Assembly (NCBI GenBank): GCA_963823995.1
Contig: CAWGNQ010000006.1
Span: 503,685-567,684, forward strand
From: an uncultured Acidobacteriota bacterium
Lineage (GTDB): Bacteria > Acidobacteriota > UBA6911 > RPQK01 > JAPXNP01
Length of the DNA: 64,000 bases
Reading direction: 5' to 3'
The notes beneath the pieces were generated by a model, which was not told where the DNA came from, did no database searches, and worked only from the letters and a program-made list of their open reading frames with translations. Made by a program: the position numbers and the translations under genes. Of this stretch, positions 1 through 43,006 are shown in pieces. Within the stretch, counting starts at the first letter, position 1, and each line of letters begins with the position of its first letter.

Positions 1-1908
1 CTTGGCGCCGATAGCGGCCAGCTGCGATTCGAGCTTCTGCTGTCGAGACCGGTAATCGGCGAGTCCCGGGACGCGGTCGGGGATTCGTCTGTAGAAACCC
101 AGGTAGCCGCCGGCCCGATTGAACTCGGCCAGCACATCGAGCGTTTCCACCGGGATCGATTCCACCTCGGGCAGAATCACCGCCTCGTAACGCCCCGTTC
201 CAATGGCCAGTCGTCCGGACTCGATCCGGGCCAGGCGGGTCAACGCGTCGTCGTTGAGAAAATCGAAGTCGAAGCCGGCCGTTCGGAGCCCCTCGACAAG
301 CTCTTCGCCGAGACTTTGTTCGATCGCCTCGTCGAAATGAAATCCTCCGATGCCCTTGCGGGACAGGATGTCGGCCATCGGGATGTAAATCGCGACGCGA
401 TTCACGGCCTCACCCCGGCGAAGAACCGACGCACAACGCCGGACGTAAGCGGCAAGATGGTGATAATGGCGCCACCAGGTGTTGGTCGGATTGATGTGGG
501 TCGACGCGTAGAATCGCCAGCCCGGCAGTCCGGCCTGGAGAGGGGAATAGGAGTAGCCGTGGTTGACGATCTGGTTGATGCCGTCCAGAAACGCCGCGTC
601 GGTCGCGGCCTTCATCATCTCCAGGTTGACCATGAACATCGGCATCCGAAGCCACGTATAGGTCTCGGCCGAGACGACGGGCTTCGAGTAGACGTGAGCG
701 GCGGAGGAGGCGAGCCGACGGTGCCGGATGTTGACCTTGTTGACGTCGCCTCCGAAGATCGTCTCGCCTTCCGGAATGTCGACGGTCCCGTAGGCCTTCA
801 TGATGTCGCCCATGGCCCCGTGGGCTTGGACACGGGAAGGAATTCCCTTCGCTTTGCACCAGTCGGCCAGTCGTCCGAAGAAGTTCTCGAGCGTGAGCTC
901 GGAAAGCGTCTGGTGATAGTCGTACCGGATGCGTTCGGCCGCCTCGTCCGTCGGCTCGATGAGCAGGTGCATTCGCTCGACGAGGTCGTACCCGCGGCGC
1001 TTGCGGAATTCTTCGAGCAAGGAGGGCGTCCAGTCGGCACCGTAGACTTCGAGACTGTCGCAGAAGACATTGTCGAAGACCGGAGCGCGTCGAGCGGCCA
1101 GCTCCTCGAGGGTTCGCTCGCCGGTTGCGTCGAGAAAAAGATCCAGCGACGGCCGGGCGAAGTGGTCGATGACGTAGCCTTCCATGCCGAGCGTGGGGCG
1201 TTTGACCTGCATGTAGGTCGGTGCATCGATGGCGGCGTAGAACCGCCACCTTCCCGCTCCGACCGTCAGCCCTTCGCTTCCCAGCTGTTTGATTTCAGCC
1301 TGACTCAGGATTCGCGATGCCGGCTCGTCGGCGGACTGAACGAGAGATCGTCCGGAGACGGTCGCGACCCGCTCGCCTTCGCCCAGCTCAGCCGCCGGAT
1401 TCCATTGAATCCTCGCCGGACCGTGGAATTCACGGGTCAGGAAGCGGATTCGGCGAGCGGCCTGGTCGAGCTGGACGAAGGGACCGCCGAACGGCCAGCC
1501 GCTGCCGAGCGTCAGATCCACTTCGAGCCCGAGCCGGTTTCCCTGCTCGACGGTAAAGGCGAGAAGGTCGTACCAGCGGGCCGAGAAAAAGGGAATGTTG
1601 AGGATTCCACGGTCGGGATCGTCGATCGCGACCGGATACACGGGTTGGATCTCCGCCCCGCCGATTCCGGCATCGCGCATGCTCTCGAGCTCGCGGGCAA
1701 TTTCACCCCGGGTCACCGCACCGCCGTACCACCACCAGCGCGTCTTCGGCCGGCAGTCGAGAGGAGGTTCGCTCAGGGCGTTCCAGAGAAGATCATGCAC
1801 GTTCGCTGGTCCTGGAGTCTGTGGCGCTCCTCGAACTCTCTTCGAGAGCAGGGGAAGACCCGCGCTGTAGCCAAGGAAAGCCCGCCGATTCAGTTTGCGC
1901 TGTTCCAT
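1..1908 (-). CDS. Secreted glycoside hydrolase, GH106-like (alpha-L-rhamnosidase-type TIM barrel), TAT signal; 3-prime end runs off the window
   Basis: This ORF is missing from the provided track because it has no stop inside the window. Manual reverse-complement translation in the frame ending at position 1 gives a continuous ~636 aa protein starting at ATG 1906-1908: MEQRKLNRRAFLGYSAGLPLL... (twin-arginine motif NRRAFLG), then WWWYGGAVTRGEIARELESMRDAGIGGAEIQPVY, typical of GH106-type hydrolase N-termini. The plus-strand ORF 316..2079 is its antisense. Confidence 0.7.
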   Translation of the reverse strand, partial: MEQRKLNRRAFLGYSAGLPLLSKRVRGAPQTPGPANVHDLLWNALSEPPLDCRPKTRWWWYGGAVTRGEIARELESMRDAGIGGAEIQPVYPVAIDDPDRGILNIPFFSARWYDLLAFTVEQGNRLGLEVDLTLGSGWPFGGPFVQLDQAARRIRFLTREFHGPARIQWNPAAELGEGERVATVSGRSLVQSADEPASRILSQAEIKQLGSEGLTVGAGRWRFYAAIDAPTYMQVKRPTLGMEGYVIDHFARPSLDLFLDATGERTLEELAARRAPVFDNVFCDSLEVYGADWTPSLLEEFRKRRGYDLVERMHLLIEPTDEAAERIRYDYHQTLSELTLENFFGRLADWCKAKGIPSRVQAHGAMGDIMKAYGTVDIPEGETIFGGDVNKVNIRHRRLASSAAHVYSKPVVSAETYTWLRMPMFMVNLEMMKAATDAAFLDGINQIVNHGYSYSPLQAGLPGWRFYASTHINPTNTWWRHYHHLAAYVRRCASVLRRGEAVNRVAIYIPMADILSRKGIGGFHFDEAIEQSLGEELVEGLRTAGFDFDFLNDDALTRLARIESGRLAIGTGRYEAVILPEVESIPVETLDVLAEFNRAGGYLGFYRRIPDRVPGLADYRSRQQKLESQLAAIGAK

Positions 1909-1917
1909 TGCGGTAGT

Positions 1918-1962
1918 GTAGGACAACCTTCCGCGGTTGTCCCGGTGCCCGAAAGAACGGTC
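1918..1962 (+). repeat. Copy 1 of a ~46-bp palindromic element (GTAGGACAACC-N6-GGTTGTCC-CGGTGCCCGAAAGAACGGTC), 10 nt upstream of the start codon of the minus-strand GH gene
   Basis: Perfect 8-bp inverted repeat GGACAACC/GGTTGTCC with a 6-nt loop. About 90% identical to a second copy at 40342-40387. Confidence 0.6.
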
Positions 1963-2209
1963 CCGAGCTTCCCCACGCGCATACCTGGTTTTGATGCACC
2001 GTGCGGCTTTCTCGGTAGCCACTGCTTCGGGCAGCGAGAACGTTTCCCTACTCTAGGGCATTCTTCCATTCCGGTGTAAGATTGGGACCTTGCAACTTCG
2101 AGGTATCGCCAGGACGCGCGGGAACAAAACCGCGCTCGAATGGAGAAGAATCCGATGAAAGATTCTGTTCACTTGCGCAAGGCACGCTCTTACAGCCGCA
2201 CCCATCGTC

Positions 2210-4723
2210 TTGACACTCCTGATCATCCCTTGTTGGCCGCCGCCGGAGGTGTCCGGTCAGAACAACCAGCTCAAGCTCAACGACCAGGGGTACTTCGAGG
2301 AGACCGGTTTCAACGTGTTCGTTTTCAGCGATCAGTACAACGGGATGTTCTTCGACGAGAAGACGGCCGGAATCGAGCTGATCCATCATGGCGTCCGAAC
2401 GGCCACGGGCGGTGCCGTCAGGCTGAAGCCGACCCCCGAGCAATGGGATCAGATTCCGAAAGTCGTCGATCGAAAAGTGGACAAGGCGAGCAACACGATC
2501 GAAGTGACTCTCCGGTATGAAGCTTTCGACTTCGACTCCAGACTCGTCGTCACGCCGAAGGATCAGGGCGTCTCGATCAGCGTCTATCTCGACAAGCCTC
2601 TGCCTGCAGAGCTCGAAGGGCGCACCGGGTTGAATCTCGAGTTTCTGCCCTCCGCCTATTTCGAGAAGACTTATCTGATGGACGGTCAACCCGGAATCTT
2701 CCCGCTCTACCCATCCGGGCCCATGGTCGTGAAGCCCGCCGGTACGCAGATTCGCCAGTTCGAAGGCTACTCGACTTTCGACGATCGAGGGCGGGGCGAA
2801 TACGTGGAGCCTGATCCGATTGCGATCGGCAAGACTTTGGTGCTGGCACCTGAGGATCCGGAACGCCACATTGATATCCACAGTCTCACCGCCGACCTGA
2901 TGCTGCTGGATGGCCGCAATGTCGCGCAGAACGGATGGTTCGTCGTCCGTACCCTGATTCCTGCGAAGGCCACGGGCAAAGTCGCTGAATGGTATCTGCG
3001 GCCCCATACGATCCCCAGCTGGAAGCGGACCCCCGTCATCGGGTTCTCGCAGACCGGATACCATCCCGACCAGCAGAAGATCTCAGTGATCGAGTTGGAC
3101 CGGAACGACACCCCCCTGCCGAAGGCTTCGGTCTATCAGGTGACGGCCTCCGGCGACGAGGTCGAAAAGCTGACGGGTGACGTCAAGCCCTGGGGCGAGT
3201 ACCTTCGCTACCGGTACGCCACCTTCGATTTCAGCTCCGTCAAGGATCCCGGTCTCTACGTCATCAAGTATGGAGATCAGAAGACCGATCCGTTTCCCGT
3301 CGGGCCGGAGGTACATAAGGACATCTGGTACAAGACCCTCGATGTCTGGTTCCCCGTGCAGATGGACCATATGTTCGTCAATGAAGCCTATCGGGTCTGG
3401 CACGGTGCGGCGCATCTGGACGACGCGCGGCAGGCGCCCGTCAACATTCAGCATTTCGACGGCTATCGGATGGGGCCTTCGACCGAGACGAAGTACAAGC
3501 CGGGAGAGCACATTCCGGGACTGAACGTCGGTGGCTGGTTCGATGCCGGAGACTACGACATCCGGACAGGCTCTCATTCCAGTACGATCATGTACCTGGT
3601 CGATACCTGGGAGAATTTCAAACCGGAACGGGACGAGACGCTGGTCGATCAGGCGCGCCGTTTTGTCGACATCCACCACCCGGACGGAAAGGCGGACATA
3701 CTCCAGCAGATCGAGCAGGGCGCGCTGGCACTCGTCGCGCAACACCGGGCCTTCGGCCGGGCGATTCCGGGGATCATCGTTCCTCACCTGCATCAGTATC
3801 ATCACCTCGGTGACGGTTCGACTCAAACGGACGGTCTGCTGTACAACCCGGAACTGGAGCCTCATCAGACCGATGGGTTCAGTAGCGGCACGCCCGACGA
3901 TCGATGGGCCTTCACGAACAAGTCCGCTGCGAACAACTACGTGTCCAGCGCCGCTCTGGCGGCGGCCAGCCGCGCGCTGCGCGGTTTCAACGATCCACTG
4001 GCGGACGAGTGTCTGGCGGATGCTGAAAAGGCCTGGAACGACGAACGCGAGGCGCCTGCTTCCAACGAAGCCGGCTTCATGGCGGCTTTTCGCCAAAGTG
4101 CAGAATTGACGTCGACGCTTCAGTTGCTGATCGCGACGAAGGATCAGAGATATGCAGATCGCTTCGACGAGCTGATCTGGCCCGCCCTGGATCGTGCGCT
4201 GGGTCGAAGCATCTCGACCGCCGTGAGGGCGGTACCGTATCTCGATTCGGCGTTCAAGGAAAAGCTGCAGCCCTATGTCGTCAAATACAAAGACGAGGCC
4301 GCCGGCCTGTACAAGCAGAATCCCTACGGCGTTCCGATCACCACGGGCGGCTGGGCCGGCAATCAGACCGTCATCAACTGGTCTGTCACGAACTATCATC
4401 TCCACAAGGAGTTCCCCGAGATCTTCGGGCCTGAGTATGTCTACCGCGGACTGAATTACATCCTCGGTTGCCATCCGACCTCGAATGTCTCGTTTGTCTC
4501 TGGCGTCGGGACCCGTTCCAAGAAGATTGCCTACGGAAACAACCGCGCCGACTACACTTTCATTGCCGGCGGAGTGGTTCCGGGAGTGCTGGTCCTCAAA
4601 CCGGACTTTCCCGAGAACAAGCTGGACTGGCCCTTCCTCTGGGGTGAGAACGAGTATGTGATCGACATTTGTGCGGAGTACATCCTCCTCTCCAATGCGG
4701 TCGACCACCTGCTGGGCGAGTAG
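2210..4723 (+). CDS. Glycoside hydrolase family 9 (endoglucanase/glucosaminidase-like) with a long N-terminal domain; true start probably ATG 2155 followed by a 1-nt indel
   Basis: Carries the GGWFDAGDYDIRTG GH9 signature and a C-terminal WGENEYVIDICAEY motif. The listed ORF starts at a TTG with a poor N-terminus. The same frame stays open back to 2159 and encodes a signal-peptide-like KILFTCARHALTAAPIVLTLLIIPCW. ATG 2155, with a GGAGAAG Shine-Dalgarno 5 nt upstream, lies 1 nt out of frame, just before an AAA run. Confidence 0.8.
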   Translation: MTLLIIPCWPPPEVSGQNNQLKLNDQGYFEETGFNVFVFSDQYNGMFFDEKTAGIELIHHGVRTATGGAVRLKPTPEQWDQIPKVVDRKVDKASNTIEVTLRYEAFDFDSRLVVTPKDQGVSISVYLDKPLPAELEGRTGLNLEFLPSAYFEKTYLMDGQPGIFPLYPSGPMVVKPAGTQIRQFEGYSTFDDRGRGEYVEPDPIAIGKTLVLAPEDPERHIDIHSLTADLMLLDGRNVAQNGWFVVRTLIPAKATGKVAEWYLRPHTIPSWKRTPVIGFSQTGYHPDQQKISVIELDRNDTPLPKASVYQVTASGDEVEKLTGDVKPWGEYLRYRYATFDFSSVKDPGLYVIKYGDQKTDPFPVGPEVHKDIWYKTLDVWFPVQMDHMFVNEAYRVWHGAAHLDDARQAPVNIQHFDGYRMGPSTETKYKPGEHIPGLNVGGWFDAGDYDIRTGSHSSTIMYLVDTWENFKPERDETLVDQARRFVDIHHPDGKADILQQIEQGALALVAQHRAFGRAIPGIIVPHLHQYHHLGDGSTQTDGLLYNPELEPHQTDGFSSGTPDDRWAFTNKSAANNYVSSAALAAASRALRGFNDPLADECLADAEKAWNDEREAPASNEAGFMAAFRQSAELTSTLQLLIATKDQRYADRFDELIWPALDRALGRSISTAVRAVPYLDSAFKEKLQPYVVKYKDEAAGLYKQNPYGVPITTGGWAGNQTVINWSVTNYHLHKEFPEIFGPEYVYRGLNYILGCHPTSNVSFVSGVGTRSKKIAYGNNRADYTFIAGGVVPGVLVLKPDFPENKLDWPFLWGENEYVIDICAEYILLSNAVDHLLGE

Positions 4724-4791: not shown

Positions 4792-6829
4792 ATGAAATCT
4801 GTTGCCTTTGATGGGGAGGTCCGGAAGGGGACCCCCGACCACGTACTGAGAGTTCTGTCTTTCGCTTTCCTGATCTTCGGGGTGTCGGTCCTGTTCGGAG
4901 CCTGCACCCGACCGTCGCCGGCTTCCGCCGCGGAAGAGACCGTCCAGCCCGGGATTGCCGTGCTCCTCGTCGACACCGACCGTGTCATGGGAGAGATCGA
5001 ACCGGGCGTCTACGGCCAGTTCCTCGAACATATCAACCATTCGGTCGTCGATGGTCTCTATGCCGAGCAGGTCCGGGGCCAGGGATTCGAAGGGAACGAC
5101 TTCGAGACCTACTGGCAGCCCTTTGCCGAGCAGGGCAGTCAGGGAAGCGCGGACGTTGTCGAAGGGCAGTTTCCCAACGGGGAGAAAGGTGTCAGGCTGG
5201 ACGTTTCCGGCGGCACGATCGGCATCCGGCAGCGGCGGATCGACCTCGAGGTGGATCACGACTATGACGGATCGGTCTGGCTCAAGCCCGAAGAGGGATC
5301 AGCGCAGGTTGTTCTTCGAGTGAAGGACTCCACCGGGGTCGTAGTGGCGCAGACGCCTCTCGAGACCCAAGGCTCGGATTGGCAGGAGGCGTCCTACCGC
5401 TTCTCGTGCCCGAAGGCCGACACCGAGGGGATGGTCGAGATCTCCGCCTCGGGAAGCGGGCGGGTGCTGGTGGACTTTCTGTCGATGATGCGGGCCGACG
5501 TGCGTAAAAACGGAATGCTGCGTCCCGACCTCCTCGAGGCACTTCAGGATCTCGAGCCACCGTTCGTCCGCTGGCCCGGCGGATCCTTCGCTTCCTTCTA
5601 CAACTGGAAAGACGGTATCGGCCCTCGGGTATCGCGCAAATACCGCCCCAATGAGCTCTGGGGCAATTACTCCGATTACAACGGATTCGGTGTGGACGAG
5701 TTTATGGAGTTGTGCCGACAGTTGGGGGCGGAGCCGTTGATCTGTCTCAGCGCGACGAGCACGAAGCCCGAGGAAATCCAGAACGCCATGGACTGGGTTC
5801 ACTATGTCAACGACCCGCCCACGACCGAGTGGGGGAAGAAGCGTGCGGAGAACGGCCACGCAGAGCCCTACAATGTGCGTTACTTCCAGATCGACAACGA
5901 GCCGATGAACCACGGCCTGACTCCGGATCAGTACGCTGAGATCGTGAACGTCTATGGGAGTCGGCTGAGGAAGATCGCTCCGGAAGCCAAGATCGTAGCC
6001 TGCGGACAGAAGCGGTCCAACGACATGGTGTGGAGCGAGAAGGTCATCGATGAAGCCGGAGAGAACTTCGACATCCTCGGTTGCCACAACTATGAATACG
6101 AGCCCGAGAACTTCGAGACGGGTCTCCGCCGGATCCAGGATTATCTGGTCAAACTCAGGGATTACGTCAGGGCGTCCGCGCATCCGGACATCAAGCTCGC
6201 CGTGCTGGAGTGGGGCCTGTGCCGGAGCTATGCCTGGCGTGCGGGGCTGCACACGGCGGGCAGTCTGATGATTTACGAGAAGCTGAGCCCCGAGCTGGAG
6301 ATGAGCTGTCCCGCGCTGCTGATGCGGAACACAACGGACGACCCGACCTGGACGGCCTTCATCTACCATGATCATGTCTCATGGTTCCCGGGATCGGGAT
6401 ACGTCGTGGAGAGAGCTGTTTCGGGATCACTTCGCGGAGAAGCATTTCGCATCCACGACCGGGACCTTTGCAGATATCGAGCATCGGAGCGAGTTCTTCG
6501 ATGGCATTGCTCAGATGAAACCCACTGACTGGAAACCCGGAACAGTCGACGCGATCGCTACGGGCAGTGCCGACGGCAAACGCATCGTCATCAAGGCGGT
6601 CAACTACGAGCCGACGAGCAACGTGCTGCTCACCCGGCTTCAGGGTTCCGGAGTGCCCGAGAATGCCGAAGTGAAAGTGTATTCGGTCTCCGCCGGTCTG
6701 GACGACGCCTGTTCGATTGAGAATCCTGGTCGGATTGCTCCTCACGAATCGAGCATGGCTTATTCGAAGGATCTGACGATCGACCTGGATCCCTACGAGG
6801 TGGTCGTGGTGGAGATTACGGCAAGATGA
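4792..6829 (+). pseudogene. GH51 alpha-L-arabinofuranosidase (lipoprotein signal LFGAC) interrupted by a +1 frameshift near 6408-6415; may be an assembly error
   Basis: Start is ATG 4792 with an AGGAGA Shine-Dalgarno 7 nt upstream; signal MKSVAFDG...VLFGACTRP. Catalytic domain shows VRWPGGSFASFYNWKDGIGP and QIDNEPMNHG. Frame 1 turns into nonsense after ...FIYHDHVSWFPGSGYVVE, while ORF 6368..6829 in frame 2 continues with ELFRDHFAEKHF...SADGKRIVIKAVN, the conserved GH51 C-terminal beta-sandwich. The junction sits in a GAGAGAG dinucleotide run. Confidence 0.75.
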
Positions 6830-10538: not shown

Positions 10539-13281
10539 GTGTCAGATGGAGACCAGAAAGTGCGGAGAGCGGGATCTAGAAGTACGGCCGTCAGACGTCG
10601 GGTCGCCTGGAGGCCGTTGCTCTGGGTGATCGGAGCGCTGCTGCTCCTTGTTTTGGTCGCGGTGGCCTGCCACCGGTCTCCGAATCTCATCCGTTCAACC
10701 GACCCGGTTGCGTTCTCCCGCAGAGACCATGTCGTGTTGCCGGTGAGCCAGATTCTGAGCCCCGCGGGCGCTCAGGTCGAGCTTCCGGGCCTGCGCCCCC
10801 AGGCTCTGGCCCTGAGCCCGGACGGGCGGGTCCTCCTCACGGCGGGCAAAACGCCTGAGATCATCGTGATCGATCCGGACACCGCCGCCGTCAGACAGAG
10901 GGTTCCTCTGCCCGCCGCTGGACAGGATGTGCCGGCGGATGCGGTCTCCACGCATTTCCTGCAGCCCGACGAAGAGGGTCAGCTGAGCTACACGGGGCTG
11001 GTCTTCTCGCCTGACGGCGGGAGGGCCTACATGTCCGACGTCAACGGCAGCGTCAAGGTGTTTCGGGTTTCGGAGCCGGGAAGCCTGGAACCGCTTCGGT
11101 CGCTGCCGCTTCCTGCCACCGGGCTGGAGCGGCGAGGCGAGCCCATTCCTTCGGGTCTTCGGGTCTCGGAGGATGGGAAGCGCCTCTTCGTCGTGCTGAA
11201 CCTGACCAACCGGCTGGTCGAGCTCGATGCCGCGAGCGGGCGGATCCTGCGCAGGTTTGAGGTCGGAGTCGCCCCGTTCGACGTGATCCTGGCCGATGGA
11301 AAGGCGTATGTGAGCAACTGGGGAGGCCGCCGACCTGAGGCCGACTCCGTCGTCGGTCCGGCCGGGCGGGGCTCCGAGGTGCGCGTCGACCCGAAACGCT
11401 ACGTGGCCTCGGACGGATCGGTCACGGCCATCGATCTCGAGGCCGGTCGCGTGGTTCGGGAGATACCGGTCGGACTGCATTCCTCGGGCCTGGCTCTGAC
11501 GCCGGACCGGCGCTTCCTCGCCGTTGCGAACGCAGCCAGTGACTCCGTTTCGGTGATAGACACAAGAAGAGACGAGGTCGTCGAGACCATCTCCCTGCGT
11601 TGGCAGCCGAGGGACTACTTCGGAGCGAGCCCCAACGCGCTCACCTTCGACTCGACGGGACGGAAGCTCTTCGTCTGCAACGGAACCCAAAACGCCGTTG
11701 CCGTCGTCTCCTTCGATCCGGGACACTCGACCCTGGAGGGAATGATCCCGGTTGGATGGTTTCCGGGGGCGATCCTGTATGACGGCGCTCGAAACGCACT
11801 CGTCGTGGCCAATATCAAGGGGCTCGGTTCCGGACGCCGGACATTCGGACCGGAGGAAGAGGGGTTCAATTCCCGCCAGTACTTCGGTTCGATTTCGGTG
11901 GTCCCGGTCCCGGACGATCGCCAGCTGGTCCGCTACACGAAGACCGTGCGGCGAACTTCCGACGGGAGATCGATCGAAGCCGCACAGTTGCCGGCTCGCC
12001 CGGGACGGGCCGCCCGTCCCGTCCCCGAGCGGGTGGGCGAGCCTTCGGTCTTCAAGCACGTCGTCTACATCATCAAAGAGAATCGTACCTATGATCAGGT
12101 GCTCGGGGATCTCGCCCGGGGCAATGGAGATCCGCGGCTCTGCGTCTTCGGGGAACGGGTGACGCCCAACCTGCACAAAATCGTCAAGGAGTTCGTCCTG
12201 TCTGGACAACACCTACTGTTCGGGGATCCTGAGTGCCGACGGGCATCAGTGGTCGACGACCGCAATGGCAACCGACTATATGGAGAAGTCGTTTGCCGGA
12301 TTCCCTCGAAGCTATCCGGACGGGATGAGCGACGACGACGTCGATGCGCTGGCCTATGCGCCGACCGGATTCATCTGGGACAACGTTCTGGAGCAGGGGA
12401 AGACGCTTCGCGACTACGGTGAATTCTCGATCGCGGAGATCGGATGGACCGATCCGTGGCGGATGCCGCCGCCGACTTTCATCGACTTCTACCGGGACTT
12501 CATCAACAAGACGGGGTTGACCCGGGTGGGGAGTCGACCCGCCATCGAATCTCTGCGTCCCTATCTCGACAGGGAGGTGGGTTGGAGCCTGGATGTTCCG
12601 GAGTTCTCCGGGCCGACCGGTTCATCAAAGAGCTCGGCGAGTTCGAGAAGAGCGGCCGGTTTCCGGATCTCGTCATCATCTGTCTGCCCAACGATCACAC
12701 TTCGGGAACCAAGGAAGGGATGCCGACTCCCGAGGCTCATGTGGCCGACAACGATCTGGCCTTCGGCCGGATCGTCGAGGCGATCAGTCACAGCCGCTTC
12801 TGGAAGGAGACCTGTATCTTTGCGATCGAGGACGATCCGCAGGACGGCTGGGATCATGTCAGTTCCTTCCGGACGACCGCTTACGTGATCAGTCCCTACA
12901 CCCGACGCGGCGCGGTCGTCGGCACGCAATACAACCAGCCCGGCATCCTGCGCACGATCGAACTGATCCTGGGCCTTCCTCCGATGAACCAGATGGATGC
13001 GGCCGCTACGCCGTTGTTCGACTGCTTTCAGGACAAGCCCGACTTCACTCCGTACGATGCCGTCCCGAACAACATCCCGCTCGACCGGCTGAATCCTCCC
13101 GCCAGAGCTGGAAGGACAGTCGTATGCGAGGTATGCGGAGTTGTCGGCGACGCTGCCGTTGGACGAAGTGGACCGGTGCCCGGAAGATCTTCTCAACAGG
13201 ATCCTGTGGCATGCACGGAAAGGGCCGGACGCTCCCTATCCGGAATGGGCAACGACGCCGAACTCCGACGAGGACAAATGA
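10539..13281 (+). pseudogene. YVTN beta-propeller plus phosphoesterase (PF04185-type acid phosphatase / phospholipase C family) protein broken by three single-nt indels; may be an assembly error
   Basis: The N-terminal half is intact (YVTN-type propeller repeats: SPDGRVLLTAG, SEDGKRLFVVLN, TPDRRFLAVANAASDSVSVID), followed by VVYIIKENRTYDQVLGDL (phosphoesterase). The protein continues across ORFs 10539..12422 (frame 3), 12265..12888 (frame 1), 12444..13304 (frame 3), and an unlisted frame-1 tail ELEGQSYARYAELSATLPLDEVDRCPEDLLNRILWHARKGPDAPYPEWATTPNSDEDK ending with TGA at 13279-13281. Junctions lie near 12201 (extra T in ctgtctg), 12613 (missing C in gggccgac) and 13104. Confidence 0.7.
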
Positions 13282-13490
13282 GGGATTCCGAATTTCCATT
13301 TTGACTGGGCACGCAGTTCGCGCCGGAAGGAGAGTCAGGAGTCGACGGCCGTGCAGCGGGTCCCTCACTTCGTTCCGGCTCTGATGCGGCCAATGGAAAA
13401 TCTCGACGCTCTGCCGTCCTTGCGTTGCCGCGCGCTGCCCGCTATTCTCAGATCGATCGTTCGCCCATTCTTCGAAGAAGGGGGCCTTTC

Positions 13491-15092
13491 GTGAGAGTAC
13501 TTTCCGTATCGTTCTTGTCGCTTCGATCCTGATCCTTGCCGGCTGTTCCACTCAGCAACAGGCCGTCGGGACCCCTCCCAACATTCTGTTCATCATGTCG
13601 GACGATCATGGCGAGCAGGCGATTTCGGCGTATGGGAGTCAATTGATCCAGACACCGAATATCGACCGAATCGCCAACGAGGGCGTCCGCTTTACGAGCA
13701 GCTTCGTCACGAACTCGTTCTGCGCCCCCAGCCGCGCCGTCCTTCTGACGGGCAAGTACAGCCACATCAACCGGCTTCGAGACAATCGAGATCAGTTCGA
13801 CGGTAGTCAGATGACTTTCCCGAAGCTGCTCCAGAAGGCCGGATATCAGACGGCGATCGTAGGGAAATGGCATCTCAAGACGGATCCGACGGGCTTCGAT
13901 CTCTGGAAGATTCTGATCGATCAGGGCGAGTACTACAATCCCGACTTCATCGAGATGGGTGAGAAGGTCCATGAGACCGGATACGTCACGGATTTGATCA
14001 CGGACTTCGCTGTCGACTTCCTCGATCATCGAGATCCGAACAAGCCCTTCTGTCTCCTTCTTCACAACAAGGCGCCCCATCGAAACTGGATGCCGAACGC
14101 AAAATACATGGATCTGTATGACGAGCGAGACGATCCCCGAGCCGGAGACGTTCTGGGACGACTATAAGGGCCGGATCGCCGCCCAACAGCAGGACATGCG
14201 CATCGCAGGGATGTACCTGAGCATGGACATGAAGCTCTTCGAGGACGCCTACGGCAAGGAAACCGGAACGGGCGGTCAGGCCGGCTTTCCTGCGGGAATG
14301 GTCTGGAAGATGGAATACAACCGGATGAACGACGAACAGAAAGCCGCCTGGAACGCGCACTACGATAAGGTCAATGAGGAGTACAAGAAGAATCCGCCGA
14401 CGGGAAAGGCCCTGACCGAGTGGAAGTACCAGCGTTTCATGAAGGACTACCTCCGCTGCATCGCCTCGGTGGATGATAATGTGGGTCGAGTTCTCGACTA
14501 CCTCGACGAACACGATCTCGCGAAGAACACGATCGTCGTCTACACCTCGGATCAGGGCTTCTACCTGGGCGAGCATGGCTGGTTCGACAAGCGCTTCATG
14601 TACGAGGAGTCGTTCGAGATGCCGCTCATGATCCGCTATCCGGCCGAGATCGAGGCCGGCCAGGTGTCGGACGATCTGGTCATGAACCTCGATTTCGCAC
14701 CCACCTTCCTCGACTATGCCGGCGTCCCGGTTCCCGAGCAGATGCAGGGAGTTTCCCTGCGGCCGTTGATGGAGGGATCCAGGCCGGACAACTGGCGCGA
14801 GGCCGTCTACTACCACTACTACGAATACCCGCATGGGTGGCACAACGTGAAGCGGCACTACGGAGTCCGGACCGACCGCTACAAGCTGATCCACTTCTAC
14901 AATGATATCGACGTGTGGGAGCTCTATGACCTGCAGAAAGACCCGCACGAGTTGCACAACGTCTACGGACAGCCCGAGTACGCGGACGTCCAGGCCGACC
15001 TCCACGCTAAGCTGAAGGAACTGCAGCAGCAGTACAGGGACACGAACCCGGAATCGGACGAGCTCCCGCCGGTCGAAGTTCCGGGGAAATAG
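13491..15092 (+). pseudogene. Sulfatase (arylsulfatase / N-acetylglucosamine-6-sulfatase-like lipoprotein) with two frame-disrupting indels; may be an assembly error
   Basis: ORFs 13595..14167 (frame 2: FIMSDDHGEQAISAYG...CAPSRAVLLTGKY) and 14118..15092 (frame 3: ...YTSDQGFYLGEHGWFDKR...) are two parts of one sulfatase. The junction lies near 14128-14140 in a gagcgagacga run. Upstream, frame 2 encodes a lipobox signal, ...IVLVASILILAGCSTQQQ, with no start codon. GTG 13491 (Shine-Dalgarno AAGGGGG 6 nt upstream) gives MRVLSVSFL in frame 3 and would join it by a 1-nt shift near 13517-13522. Confidence 0.7.
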
Positions 15093-38521: not shown

Positions 38522-40345
38522 ATGAGTCGCCGTTCTATCCATGTTTCGATTTGCACCCTTGTGACCTTCCTCGTCTTGGTCTCTGCAGGCATGGCCCAGT
38601 CGACCGGCTGGCAACGCGGACAAGGCCCTCTTTCGACGCGCTGGACCAGCCAGGTGTTACCGGCGAACGTGCATCCCGAGTATCCCCGTCCCCAACTGGT
38701 CCGTGATGACTGGCAAAGCCTGAACGGCCTTTGGGACTACGCGATTCGACCCACGAATGCCCCTGCACCTTCGGAGCACTTCGACGGACAGATCCTCGTC
38801 CCGTTTTCCATTACATCGGCCCTTTCGGGTGTCATGGATCAGGTGGGGCCGGGGAACATGCTCTGGTATCGCAGGAGTTTCGAAATTCCGAGTCGTTGGA
38901 GGACGGGACGAGTTCTCCTGCACTTTGGGGCTGTCGACTGGGCTGCGACGGTCTGGGTCAATGGCCACCAGGTCGGCTCCCATGAGGGCGGGTATACGCC
39001 GTTCAGCTGTGATGTGACCTCGGCGTTGGCGGATTCGGCGGGCCAGGAGGTCGTGGTCTCGGTCTGGGACCCGACCGATGCGGGATTCCAACCCCGGGGG
39101 AAGCAAGTACGGAATCCGCACGGTATCTGGTACACACCGACGACCGGGATTTGGCAGACGGTCTGGGCCGAAACCGTCCCCGACACTTACATCGAAGCCA
39201 TTCGGATAACTCCCGACGTCGATGCCGGGGCTCTTCGGCTCTTGGTTCATACGAACCAGAAAACAGCAGGGGTCACCGTCAGGGCCGAGGTTGTCGACGA
39301 CGGCACCGTCGCCTCGGCAACCGGTCGCGCCGGCGACCAGATCGTGCTGGAGATCGATCATCCCAGGCTCTGGTCCCCCGAGACACCCTTCCTCTACGAC
39401 CTGCATGTTTCGCTGATCCGGAACGGGCAAAGCATCGACAGCGTCAAGAGCTACTTCGGCATGAGGAAGATCAGTCTCGGAAAGGGCCCGGACGGCGTGC
39501 TTCGCCTCCTTCTCAACGACAAGGCCCTTTTCCAGTTCGGTCCGCTCGACCAAGGCTTCTGGCCTGACGGCATCTACACGGCGCCGACCGACGAGGCGCT
39601 GCGCTACGACATCGAGGTCACCAAACGGCTCGGATTCAACATGATTCGCAAACATGTCAAGATCGAGCCCGAACGCTGGTACTACTGGGCGGACAAGCTG
39701 GGGATCCTGGTCTGGCAGGATATGCCGAGCGGCGATGCCTACATCCGTCCGAACGAGCCGGACATAACGCGCGTTGCGCAGTCCGCCTACCACTTCGACC
39801 GGGAGTTGAAGGAACTGATCGACAGCCGATACAACCACCCCTCGATCGTGATGTGGGTGCCGTTCAATGAAGGGTGGGGGCAATTCGAGACCGGCCGGAT
39901 CACAAGCTGGATCAAGAACTACGATCCGAGCCGACTGGTCGACAGCACCAGCGGCTGGGCCGACCGGGGCGTTGGAGACGTACACGACATCCACGCCTAT
40001 CCGGGTCCCACGGCTCCGGTCGTCGAACCCTATCGGGCCGTCGTGTTGGGGGAGTTCGGCGGGCTGGGTCTTCCGCTTCCGGGTCATACCTGGCAGTCGG
40101 AGGACAACTGGGGATATCGAAGCTTCAAGAATGCCCAGGAATTGACGGACGCCTACGTGCAGCTCCTCGAGAAGCTGAAGCCGCTCGTTGCCGACCGCGG
40201 CCTGGCAGCGGCCGTCTATACGCAGACGACCGACGTAGAAGTCGAAGTGAACGGGTTGATGACTTACGACCGGGCGGTCGTCAAGATGGACCAGGAGAAG
40301 GTCCGGCAGGCGAACGAGGAGTTATACGGAAAGGTTCCGGAGTAG
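38522..40345 (+). CDS. Glycoside hydrolase family 2 (beta-galactosidase/beta-mannosidase/glucosaminidase-like), secreted
   Basis: The start is set at ATG 38522 (GGGAGA Shine-Dalgarno; signal [26 protein letters not shown]). GH2 sugar-binding region [25 protein letters not shown] barrel with [32 protein letters not shown] and [12 protein letters not shown]. Confidence 0.75.
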
Positions 40346-40387
40346 GACAACCGTCCCCGGTTGTCCCGGTGCCCCGAAAGAACGGTC
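40342..40387 (+). repeat. Copy 2 of the ~46-bp palindromic element, starting at the GH2 stop codon
   Basis: gtaggacaaccgtccccggttgtcccggtgccccgaaagaacggtc: same 8-bp stem as copy 1, with a different loop and one extra C. Confidence 0.6.
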
Positions 40388-40484
40388 TCAGCACGACCCC
40401 CACGGATGCCGAGGCTTCGATGCGCCTTCCAGCTCTTCCGGTGCCCGCAGTTGCGGCAATCGGACAAGCAAGGATGCTTATCCT

Positions 40485-40506
40485 ACTCGGAACTCGGAAC
40501 TCGGAG
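40485..40506 (-). repeat. Three tandem TTCCGAG heptamers (read on the minus strand), just 3-prime of the GH127-like gene stop
   Basis: The plus strand reads ctcggaactcggaactcggag. Confidence 0.5.
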
Positions 40507-40507
40507 A

Positions 40508-43006
40508 CTACTCCCCGACGCGCCACTCGTAGACACCCGACGACGCTTCGGGGCGGGACTGGATGACGATCCGAACCGCGCGGGCCTGGACGGGCGCAAA
40601 GTCCACACGGCTGAACCGGTTCTCTTCGATCGGGTAGTCTCCGGAAGCGGAAACCGGTCGCCAGCTTTGCCCGTCGGACCAGAGAATCTGCCAGCTCTGG
40701 GGAAGCTCCACTTCGCCGTCGTAAACGAAGAATGCTTCGCTCGATGTTAACCGTCTGACTTCAGGAAAGTTGTACTGGATCCACTCGGCCGTGCCCGGGT
40801 GCGATCGGAACGTTGCTTTGGGGGCATCCTGGTGTCCGGCAGTCGGGACGACGCCGTCGTTGACCGCCGAAATCTGGTCTTCGTGCCAGATAAAGGACGC
40901 CACCGGCGGACTGGTGGACACACTCCAGACCTTTCCTTCTTCACCGGGCCCGGCGATCCGCGGGAAGGCCGAGATTCTCAAGCGGGCGGCACCCATGGGA
41001 ATCAGGCGCACCTGTTCGGCCGGGGCCTCCGACCGGACGGGACTTTGCCCGATTGCTCCGACGAGACCGTTCGACTCGAGCTGCCACTCGGGAATCCTCC
41101 TGGCGCGTGCCTCGAGCTCGATGGGTGCAGCATCGAGCTCGAACGGCTGATCGGCAATGGGCCCGTCCTTCTCGACGATCTTGAAGGAGGTCTGCGGCTG
41201 ATCCGGATCGACGATCAGGCCATAGTTCCAGGCCGATGCAGGATAGACTTCGTAAGCCGGCCACTGATCCGTTCCGCCATACTTCTCCCAACGCTCCTCG
41301 ATTCTCAACGAGTAGGTCAGCGGTCCCCGGCTCACCGAGATGGAATCCTTGTTCCTGGTCCAGTCCTTGACTCGGATCTTCATCGGAAAGCGGAGTCGAA
41401 CCACGTCCCCGGCCTGCCAGCTGCGGTTGAGCTCTAGCCAGGGTCCACGGCTGTTTCCGGGCGAAAGCTTCCGGCCGTTGAGTTCGATCTCGACCTCGTC
41501 GCTCCATCCGGGAATGCGAAGATAGAGCGGAAAGGAAACCGGCTTTTCGGTCGAGACCCGAAATTCGATTCGGTCCCTGAACGGATAGTCGGTCGACTCT
41601 TCGATCTTCACCCGGGTTCCGTCACCCACCCGTGCGCTCACGGAGTTGGGTGCATAGAGAACGGCGGCCAGACCGTTGCCGCGCGTTGCCATCCAGAGGC
41701 TCTCGGCAAAGTAAGGCCAGCCGAAGGCCACGTTGTGCTGGCAGCAGCGGTAGCGCCAGGGGTTGTAGGAAAGCGTGTCGCCGGTGTTCTCCAACAGTGG
41801 GCTCTTGCTCTGGCGGTCCAGCTGGACCATGTTCGGCGCCGTCAGATAATGAAGTCCCCGTAGATTGGGTGTCATCGAGGCGGGAAACGAGTTGAAGGCG
41901 ATCTCCTCGGCACGGTCGGCCCACTTCGGGTCGCCGGTGATGCGAGTCAGCATCTCGTCGCTGTGCATGAACTCCGCCATTGTGCATGTTTCTGCCGCCT
42001 GGCGGGGTCCGGTGAAACCGGGCCGGGCGTTCTCGTCGGCTCCGAACATGCCTCCCGGAACCTGTCCGTAAGTTCCCATAAAGGTCTCGTAATTTCGGAT
42101 GGTCGCCTCCAGGTGACGCGGGTCGTGGGACTGTTGGAAGTACTGGGCCGGTTCGCGGAAGCCTTGTGCGAGGTTGACGCCGTGCCAGGTCGGGATGTCT
42201 GCCGACCAGTCGGCCGTCTGCTCGTGATTGATCCGGGCAAGATCGAGCAGCCACGCCTCACCGGTGCGATTGTAGAGCCAGTAGATACTGTCGAGGTTGT
42301 CGCCCGCCCTCCAATGCTGCCAGGTGCCCTGGACGAAGACGTCCAGCGGAACCGTCGTCTGCCACTTGAAGTAGCGCCTCATCAAGGTCAGCACCCGGTC
42401 GTCGCCGGTCGCGTCGTAGTAGGTGCGCAATACGTAGAGCATGATCATGTTCGGCCAGAGATCGTTATCGGTCGTGTGTGACACGGCCGCCTCCTCGAGG
42501 TTGGTGCGCGGTCCGAAAAATCCGTCCTTTCCCTGGCTCGAGATCACGCCCTCGATCCACTTCCTGCTTTCGTCGATGATTCGCTGGTCATTCATGATGA
42601 AGCCGAGAGCCGTGAAGCCGCGAAGCCAGTAGGGAACCTCTTCCCATCCGTGTTCGCCCCGGCCGACCGGACTGACCCAGGCATTACCGTTGATGCTGCA
42701 CCAGTCGCTGACTTCCGTGAGATTTCCGACAAAACCGTCGGCCATGAGCCGGAGCTGAGCCCGGATCCAACCGTGAGGCTCAATGCTCCCGATGGGGAGG
42801 GCGAGCAGAGGGTTTGCCGTGAGCGGATCCCGATTGCCCACATAGAATTCGTTGCTGCCGCTCTTGGGCGGGCTTGCGACGAATCGGGCGTCGGCAGGCG
42901 GATCCGACTGGGCTCCGGAGACGGCCGGCGCAAGGATCAGTCCTGGCAACAAGAGAATCGGGGCCAGGAACCAGAGACGTTTCGACTGGAGCTCTCTGAT
43001 TGTCAT
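40508..43006 (-). CDS. DUF1680 / GH127-like glycoside hydrolase (beta-L-arabinofuranosidase family) with a C-terminal discoidin-like domain, secreted
   Basis: The start is set at the internal ATG 43006 (MTIRELQSKRLWFLAPILLLPGLILAPAVSGAQ). Large (alpha/alpha)6-type domain with the NPWRYRCCQHNVAFGWPYF Cys-Cys motif reminiscent of the HypBA1 catalytic Cys pair. The C-terminal beta-sandwich ends ...SGVYEWRV. Confidence 0.6.
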   Translation of the reverse strand: MTIRELQSKRLWFLAPILLLPGLILAPAVSGAQSDPPADARFVASPPKSGSNEFYVGNRDPLTANPLLALPIGSIEPHGWIRAQLRLMADGFVGNLTEVSDWCSINGNAWVSPVGRGEHGWEEVPYWLRGFTALGFIMNDQRIIDESRKWIEGVISSQGKDGFFGPRTNLEEAAVSHTTDNDLWPNMIMLYVLRTYYDATGDDRVLTLMRRYFKWQTTVPLDVFVQGTWQHWRAGDNLDSIYWLYNRTGEAWLLDLARINHEQTADWSADIPTWHGVNLAQGFREPAQYFQQSHDPRHLEATIRNYETFMGTYGQVPGGMFGADENARPGFTGPRQAAETCTMAEFMHSDEMLTRITGDPKWADRAEEIAFNSFPASMTPNLRGLHYLTAPNMVQLDRQSKSPLLENTGDTLSYNPWRYRCCQHNVAFGWPYFAESLWMATRGNGLAAVLYAPNSVSARVGDGTRVKIEESTDYPFRDRIEFRVSTEKPVSFPLYLRIPGWSDEVEIELNGRKLSPGNSRGPWLELNRSWQAGDVVRLRFPMKIRVKDWTRNKDSISVSRGPLTYSLRIEERWEKYGGTDQWPAYEVYPASAWNYGLIVDPDQPQTSFKIVEKDGPIADQPFELDAAPIELEARARRIPEWQLESNGLVGAIGQSPVRSEAPAEQVRLIPMGAARLRISAFPRIAGPGEEGKVWSVSTSPPVASFIWHEDQISAVNDGVVPTAGHQDAPKATFRSHPGTAEWIQYNFPEVRRLTSSEAFFVYDGEVELPQSWQILWSDGQSWRPVSASGDYPIEENRFSRVDFAPVQARAVRIVIQSRPEASSGVYEWRVGE

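Follow-up and report, generated by a model that had tools for sequence, protein, structure and literature searches.

GTAG-headed hairpin doublets, probably mobile repeats of the REP/REPIN class, beside glycoside-hydrolase genes of an uncultured Acidobacteriota bacterium

The REP and BIME sequences of Escherichia coli are known to be bound by IHF, gyrase and Pol I. GTAG-tagged REPs form head-head dimers with a separation of 20-100 bp, according to the survey by Di Nocera, De Gregorio and Rocco (2013; PMC3733652). They are mostly placed at under 20 bp from the 3' ends of genes that converge, and they 'often provide the stop codon (TAG)'. The same survey lists GTAG REPs for Proteobacteria, Cyanobacteria, Chloroflexi and the PVC superphylum, and for Acidobacteria only TIR-flanked transposases (TIRYTs). 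A published rule for REP prediction looks for a stem of 7 bp or more, paired throughout and with a loop of 2-5 nt, that has GT[AG]G at a distance of 0-2 nt (PMC6006769). Class 3 TnpA_Y1-associated hairpins of Acidobacteria and Planctomycetes were described in that study as atypical, with a CnGA foot and with about 600 of them in Solibacter usitatus (Quentin et al. 2018, PMC6006769).

The 64-kb window studied here (the whole stretch of DNA that was analysed, from an uncultured Acidobacteriota bacterium) contains near-identical copies of a palindromic repeat at positions 1918-1962 and 40342-40387, both on the plus strand. Over 46 nt the copies differ by 2 substitutions and 1 indel (~93% identity), which bears out the initial annotation, where they had been placed at these positions, in this shared orientation, with ~90% identity. 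The pattern GGACAACC-N6-GGTTGTCCCGGTGCCC has two exact matches in the window (1921-1950 and 40345-40374, both plus strand), and its chance expectation from 100 dinucleotide shuffles was 0.00. Folding of the first 25 nt gave a hairpin with a perfect 8-bp stem and a 6-nt loop for copy 1 and a hairpin with a 9-bp stem and a 4-nt loop for copy 2. Alignment with related elements showed that the two sites are collinear over ~134-145 bp (1918-2051 and 40342-40486). The similarity of the right flanks is not significant when taken alone (26 of 300 shuffles) and was accepted only once the family alignments had given collinear homology. When mismatches were allowed, the search also detected a third hairpin, GTAGGATAAGCATCCTTGCTTGTCC, which is diverged and lies on the minus strand (40462-40486). 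The repeat had been described as 46 bp long, a length that has to be revised; since the homology runs on to a second, inverted GTAG hairpin, the 46-bp repeats are left ends only. We consider it very probable that they are the left ends of ~134-145-bp non-autonomous mobile elements of the REP/REPIN class, each consisting of two inverted 25-nt GTAG hairpins separated by a spacer of ~95 nt. The element is laid out as GTAG-hairpin, tail (..CCGAA[AC]GAAC..), spacer (..TTCGATGCGCC..TTTCCCGG..GCCGC..) and inverted hairpin-CTAC. The features of the two sites and of the adjoining genes are the following.

1..1908, minus strand: gene of the GH106 alpha-L-rhamnosidase family with an N-terminal NRRAFL twin-arginine motif; runs past the left end of the window
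1918..2051, plus strand: element 1, a REP doublet (REPIN-like) with decayed right arm, from full-length alignment with element 2 and the intact elements of contigs L005 and L021
1918..1942, plus strand: left REP of element 1, with GTAG head, 8-bp stem GGACAACC/GGTTGTCC and loop TTCCGC
1943..1962, plus strand: left-arm tail of element 1, CGGTGCCCGAAAGAACGGTC, conserved (family consensus ..CCGAA[AC]GAAC..)
2031..2051, minus strand: right REP of element 1, decayed; its hairpin lacks about 9 nt and the CTAC foot is kept at 2048-2051, from alignment
38522..40345, plus strand: GH2 gene, whose last two codons and stop (CCG GAG TAG) coincide with the element's terminal CCGAGTAG motif
40342..40486, plus strand: element 2, a REP doublet between the convergent GH2 (plus) and GH127 (minus) genes
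40342..40366, plus strand: left REP of element 2, with GTAG head, 9-bp stem and loop TCCC
40367..40387, plus strand: left-arm tail of element 2, CGGTGCCCCGAAAGAACGGTC, conserved
40462..40486, minus strand: right REP of element 2, GTAGGATAAGCATCCTTGCTTGTCC, with a compensated C>G / G>C stem variant and one G-T wobble
40487..40507, plus strand: three tandem TCGGAAC heptamers touching the right foot of element 2, from the sequence
40508..43006, minus strand: gene of the GH127 beta-L-arabinofuranosidase family, its stop 21 nt from the right foot of element 2

The left-arm tail recurs behind the left REPs of contigs L005, L013, L021, L023, L051 and L052. The TCGGAAC heptamers at 40487..40507 may be part of the end of element 2 or of its target, and tandems of this heptamer (GTTCCGA or GTTTCGA on the other strand) abut the REP foot or tail in independent copies, namely in the window, at 4193-4228 of L051 and at about 2760-2790 of L052. 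The tetranucleotide CCGA precedes the GTAG head, 3-4 nt further out, in about one third of the family copies, and recalls the CnGA foot of the class 3 TnpA_Y1 hairpins of Acidobacteria (PMC6006769).

The TAG of the GTAG head of copy 2 is the GH2 stop codon (40343-40345), in agreement with the earlier observation that this copy begins exactly at the stop. Element 1 sits between the divergent GH106 (minus) and GH9 (plus) genes; copy 1 lies 9 nt from the ATG at 1908..1906 of GH106 and ~240 nt from the GH9 start, and the TAT-secreted glycoside-hydrolase gene that had been placed 10 nt from it is this minus-strand GH106 gene. The GH106 start at 1908..1906 is probable and not certain, because the gene caller on a 98%-identical contig begins the gene at a GTG 36 codons downstream. 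Pfam called no TAT signal on the GH106 N-terminus, whose twin-arginine motif is read from the sequence alone. We found no intrinsic terminator-like site at 1700-2400 or 40200-40700 and no T-run after either hairpin; a sigma-70 promoter scan around both copies gave no match, and neither did Rfam at the gathering threshold over the whole window. The start of GH9 looks frameshifted (window 2155-2250): its ATG at 2155 and the body of the gene are in different frames. Contig L046, 98% identical to the window, is one A shorter at ATGAAG and one base longer at CCCTCTG, so each assembly would carry one homopolymer-type indel inside the signal peptide; GH9 homologues are ~855 aa long, as against the 824 aa called in the window. 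The window as a whole is a polysaccharide-degradation neighbourhood with GH106, GH9, an ASD1-domain protein, a GH29 fucosidase with F5/8 type C domains, a GH5 cellulase with CBM6/35, GH2 and GH127, and genes for a TPR protein with a C39/C70 peptidase and for polysaccharide export are present too. NCBI assigns close homologues of its GH2 and GH9 to Acidobacteriota, in keeping with the origin of the window.

The initial annotation had proposed folding and covariation as checks on the hairpins, and both support them. Our search pattern fixed eight stem pairs and left the six central bases free, so the 9th pair is the only unbiased test of the stem. Of 39 distinct sequences, 32 have a Watson-Crick pair here (G-C, T-A or A-T), and the 10th pair in the same set is at chance level. 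The family hairpin is therefore one of 9 bp with a 4-nt loop, since the 9th pair is kept and the next inward pair is not distinguishable from chance. In the covariation set, which consists of sequences related by descent and chosen by a palindromic pattern, 95% of the cells are paired, double-sided changes occur in 5 of 9 pairs and the covariation score was reached by none of 500 shuffles. Most stem variants are compensated (GGACAAGC/GCTTGTCC, GGACAGGC/GCCTGTCC, GGGCAACT/AGTTGCCC) or are G-T wobbles, and the orthologue of the right REP of element 2 in contig L051 carries a compensatory A-T to G-C change in the 9th pair. As judged from these alignments, it is not sequence alone but also structure that is maintained in the stem. 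An intact doublet from contig L005 (4359-4503) folds end to end as one long hairpin (-46.6 kcal/mol, z = -6.96); the window copies fold into local hairpins only, because their right arms are decayed.

Copies beyond the window were sought with the stem plus CCGGTG in genome contigs, where nine loci were found. Eight of them were rejected as chance coding matches (Streptomyces, an actinobacterium, Archangium) that have neither the GTAG head nor the tail, and only L005, a contig of an Acidobacteriota metagenome-assembled genome (MAG), was informative. It bears nine GTAG hairpins in 8 kb, arranged as three head-head doublets of ~145 bp and a head-tail tandem array. A metagenome scan returned 36 contigs, soil metagenomes being among the sources; L013, L021, L023 and L040 bear the same long family, and several hairpins are present per 1-2-kb metagenome contig. 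In the home genome there are three hairpins in the 64-kb window and none in an extra 3 kb upstream. REP doublets were seen in the window (two), in L005 (three), in L021 and in L051. GTAG stands on one strand only in 3/3 window hairpins and in 9/9 L005 hairpins. The invariance of GTAG among the matches is in part a consequence of the search pattern, which included it; the orthologues found independently, by synteny, have GTAG in L050, L051 and L052 and a decayed CTAG in L053. Other sub-families share the GGACAACC/GGTTGTCC stem (L012, L019, L020, L025-L027, L044; L015, L018, L042). One has the loop TCTCCA and forms tight head-head doublets 1-10 nt apart, and another is a 'double-foot' perfect palindrome, GTAG...CTAC.

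The TAG of the head is the exact end of long verified genes in several contigs: GH2 in the window, two TPR/thioredoxin genes in L005, DnaE in L025 and GcvP in L015. A search for further copies and a tabulation of their flanking genes had been suggested at the outset, together with the caution that two copies only, with no conservation in relatives, would suggest a local duplication; the copies in L005, in the metagenome contigs and at orthologous sites contradict this. No consistent direct repeat that could be a target-site duplication was present in the flanks of five full-length copies or in the window flanks. In a REPIN-RAYT system (REPtron), a single-copy RAYT gene is flanked by the REPs themselves. 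A search of 429 kb (the window plus 54 loci) for a Y1/RAYT transposase, by phmmer with a possibly inexact E. coli RAYT query, found none, and scans of the same 429 kb for HUH...Y(x3-4)NP and class-3-style motifs found no RAYT. A literature search for the string GTAGGACAACC returned unrelated primer matches only.

The junction between GH2 and GH127 could be compared in five contigs with GH2 orthologues, where the site is filled, decayed or empty.

L047: GH2 amino-acid identity 100%; identical element at the junction
L050: GH2 identity 78%; element on the stop codon, contig ending in the left REP (5828-5850)
L051: GH2 identity 77%; element there
L049: GH2 identity 80%; decayed remnant, stop codon now TAA
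L048: GH2 identity 75%; empty site, genes 21 nt apart

The junction is 162 nt long in the window and in L047, which have the element, versus 21 nt in L048, which is without it. The element is thus present or absent at an otherwise orthologous site, the pattern by which a mobile element is recognised. The GH2 C-terminus reads ...LYEQMK-TAG in the empty lineage versus ...PE-TAG in the filled lineages, and the CCG/CCC-GAG-TAG of the filled lineages coincides with the CCGAGTAG terminus found on several other copies. Because of this coincidence, it is most likely that the element re-terminated GH2 on insertion and gave it its last two codons and stop.

At the GH106/GH9 junction, element 1 is at the orthologous site in L046 (98% DNA identity), L052 (90% GH9 identity) and L053 (87%), in different states of erosion. 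The L046 copy has lost its 3' arm and shows 13 differences in ~35 nt amid near-identity, the L052 copy has one mismatch and one wobble, and in L053 head and stem are both lost; L054, a contig with a 76% GH9 orthologue, has different synteny and gives no information on this site. It had been proposed that a hairpin at copy 1 occludes the ribosome-binding region of GH106. We found no Shine-Dalgarno sequence in or beside the stem, and the hairpin is broken in L046 and in L053. Since neither a 98%-identical strain nor an 87% relative has it intact, the copy-1 hairpin is not a conserved regulatory feature, and its lack of conservation argues against an essential role there. The block at 2050-2125 (ACTCTAGGGCA..TTCCGGTGTAAGATTGGGACC.TGCAACTTCGA) is conserved far better than the adjoining REP doublet in the window, L046, L052 and L053, and this is probably where the divergent GH106 and GH9 genes have their actual promoter or regulatory region. 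Positions 1936-1966 of the window equal copy 2 exactly and yet are very different from 5118-5145 of L046, which suggests gene conversion between the copies, or decay or an assembly error in L046. Elsewhere the window and L046 diverge most at 5600-6600, with 141 differences in ~1 kb as compared with fewer than 6 in most other bins of 200 nt, and at 13000-14200 (with a gap at 13259-13392).

The hairpins have the sequence-level properties by which GTAG-tagged REPs are recognised. GTAG adjoins the 5' side of the hairpin foot, on one side only, where a GT[AG]G at 0-2 nt is expected; the 25-nt unit lies within the 20-40 nt typical of these palindromes, and its fully paired stem of 8 or 9 bp exceeds the 7 bp required and is closed by a short loop; and the elements are extragenic, just 3' of genes, element 2 being 0 and 21 nt from two stop codons. 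The defining property of REPINs, two inverted REPs able to form one long hairpin, is seen in the intact L005 doublet. The suggestion of a dispersed REP-type element is thereby strengthened, with a GTAG head directly on a 9-bp hairpin, head-head doublets, tandem arrays and copies scattered in other genomes. An association with glycoside-hydrolase genes had been suggested as well, possibly as the operator of a shared regulator, and in its explicit form the GGACAACC-N6-GGTTGTCC palindrome would bind a dimeric transcription factor that co-regulates these genes. An 8-bp inverted repeat with a 6-bp spacer near four GH genes of the window is what such an operator could look like, but copy 2 lies between the 3' ends of convergent genes, tandem arrays and doublets reach nine hairpins in 8 kb in L005, L048 has the orthologous GH2/GH127 pair with no element, and the GH106/GH9 pair is more likely to be regulated from the block at 2050-2125, whose conservation is much better. 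The same element also stands behind DnaE, GcvP and TPR/thioredoxin genes. We regard the operator as extremely unlikely, and rule it out because genes other than glycoside hydrolases end on the TAG of the head, copy 2 is placed between 3' ends and the L048 site is empty. The unrelated genes that adjoin family copies in related Acidobacteriota likewise indicate an ordinary mobile repeat and not a regulator of sugar degradation. That the similarity is a local two-copy duplication or due to chance, with no wider family, has next to no likelihood: the window does hold only two clear copies, but the chance expectation is zero matches, an independent MAG and several metagenome contigs have the family as well, and relatives whose neighbouring genes have 77-90% amino-acid identity carry orthologous copies.

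Two further readings concern how the element moves and why its hairpins persist. A length of ~145 bp, inverted 25-nt ends and a filled versus an empty site would also suit a MITE with 25-bp terminal inverted repeats moved by a DDE transposase. Consistent target-site duplications were not found, however, each terminal repeat is itself a GTAG-footed hairpin, and single hairpins, head-tail tandems and double-foot forms also occur, as is the behaviour of REPs, so that a MITE is very improbable. A reading as an integron attC-like site was also discarded, since the tails of the arms lack complementarity, the core sites depart from RYYYAAC/GTTRRRY and the genes on either side are chromosomal and syntenic. 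Alternatively, the hairpins could be kept for roles in RNA, as stem-loops at the 3' ends of GH2 and GH127 that block exonucleases or stall the terminating ribosome and as a 5'-UTR hairpin that affects the initiation of GH106; such roles would be exapted and are compatible with a REP origin. They are ascribed to REPs in the literature (PMC3733652; PMC6006769). The stems tolerate G-T wobble variants, the GH2 and GH127 stops are 0 and 21 nt from element 2, a search between these two convergent genes found no intrinsic terminator, and the window, L047, L050 and L051 all keep the left REP at the GH2 stop. Against this, neither the 98% strain L046 nor L053 has an intact copy-1 hairpin, copy 1 sequesters no Shine-Dalgarno sequence, L048 has the same gene pair without the element and L049 let its element decay. 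We consider retention for an RNA role unlikely, though with a real chance.

If the repeats are REP doublets of the GTAG type, a Y1 HUH transposase (RAYT/TnpA_REP-like) would be expected, by analogy with the established model for characterised REPs, to bind the hairpin and to cut and copy the element as single-stranded DNA. The GTAG tetranucleotide at the foot could then serve as a guide or cleavage site for the transposase, and the doublet (REPIN) would be the mobilised unit. Mobilisation is a step that we infer, because no RAYT transposase was found in the 429 kb. Both window copies would be old, vertically inherited insertions that are now decaying. Element 2 would have landed on the 3' end of GH2, its terminal CCGAG-TAG now giving the last two codons and the stop. 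Protection of the GH2/GH127 mRNA by 3' hairpins, or an effect of a GH106 5'-UTR hairpin, would be a by-product, if there is any, and not the reason for the sequence. A more specific proposal, to which we give a small probability, is that the family represents an uncatalogued Acidobacteriota GTAG-REP lineage in which a CCGAG-TAG module (sometimes after GTTCCGA heptamers) inserts on gene ends and adds Pro-Glu-stop, with a class-3 TnpA_Y1/TIRYT (CnGA foot) and not a canonical RAYT as the mobiliser. If true, class-3/TIRYT mobilisation would link the 'atypical' acidobacterial hairpins to classical REPs.

The comparison removes a false regulatory lead, the palindrome being neither a glycoside-hydrolase operator nor a riboswitch-like control element. 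The kind of element is well known; what is added is a GTAG-REP/REPIN family in Acidobacteriota. A canonical family of this type in uncultured Acidobacteriota is new with respect to the 2013 survey (PMC3733652), and later surveys may list one. The 2013 survey lists no GTAG REPs for Acidobacteria, and the hairpins that the 2018 study describes there are CnGA-footed. The graded orthologous sites (empty, intact and decayed) form a small natural series on persistence, stop-codon donation and erosion. The repeats appear to break short-read assemblies, since the L050 contig ends inside a REP hairpin, and they are worth masking in regulatory-motif searches of these genomes.

Among the known systems, the family resembles the GTAG-tagged REPs as PMC3733652 describes them. 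Shared features are a GTAG, unpaired or half-paired, that adjoins one end of a short-looped stem of 6-13 bp, head-head dimers with GTAG outside, tandem groups, an extragenic position near convergent 3' ends, donation of the TAG stop, G-T pairs and complementary stem variants; the stem GGACAACCG/CGGTTGTCC itself is absent from the text of the survey, Figure 1 aside. As in REPINs (Bertels and Rainey 2011, PMC3116915; PMC3337134), two inverted REPs and a spacer make up the element, intact copies form one long hairpin, and copies remain at orthologous sites through long divergence, decaying where they stand. Unlike in REPINs, only the 25-nt ends pair, because the two arms carry different internal tails; unlike the REPIN/RAYT pairing, no cognate RAYT was found in 429 kb and the window copies are degenerate. 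The E. coli REP/BIME system with TnpA_REP (RAYT; structure 4ER8, cited in PMC6006769) has a GTAG guide tetranucleotide 5' of the foot and a hairpin of similar size, whereas the E. coli REP stem is bulged and longer than that of the present family. The class 3 TnpA_Y1 hairpins (PMC6006769) belong to the same phylum, and the CCGA before GTAG in about one third of our copies is a further likeness; their foot is CnGA, however, while the foot here is the canonical GTAG, with CCGA 3-4 nt further out. With the ends of IS200/IS605 elements and their miniature derivatives the family shares subterminal hairpins with an adjacent tetranucleotide and the lack of a target-site duplication, but the left-end and right-end hairpins of IS200/IS605 have the same orientation and those of the doublets described here are inverted.
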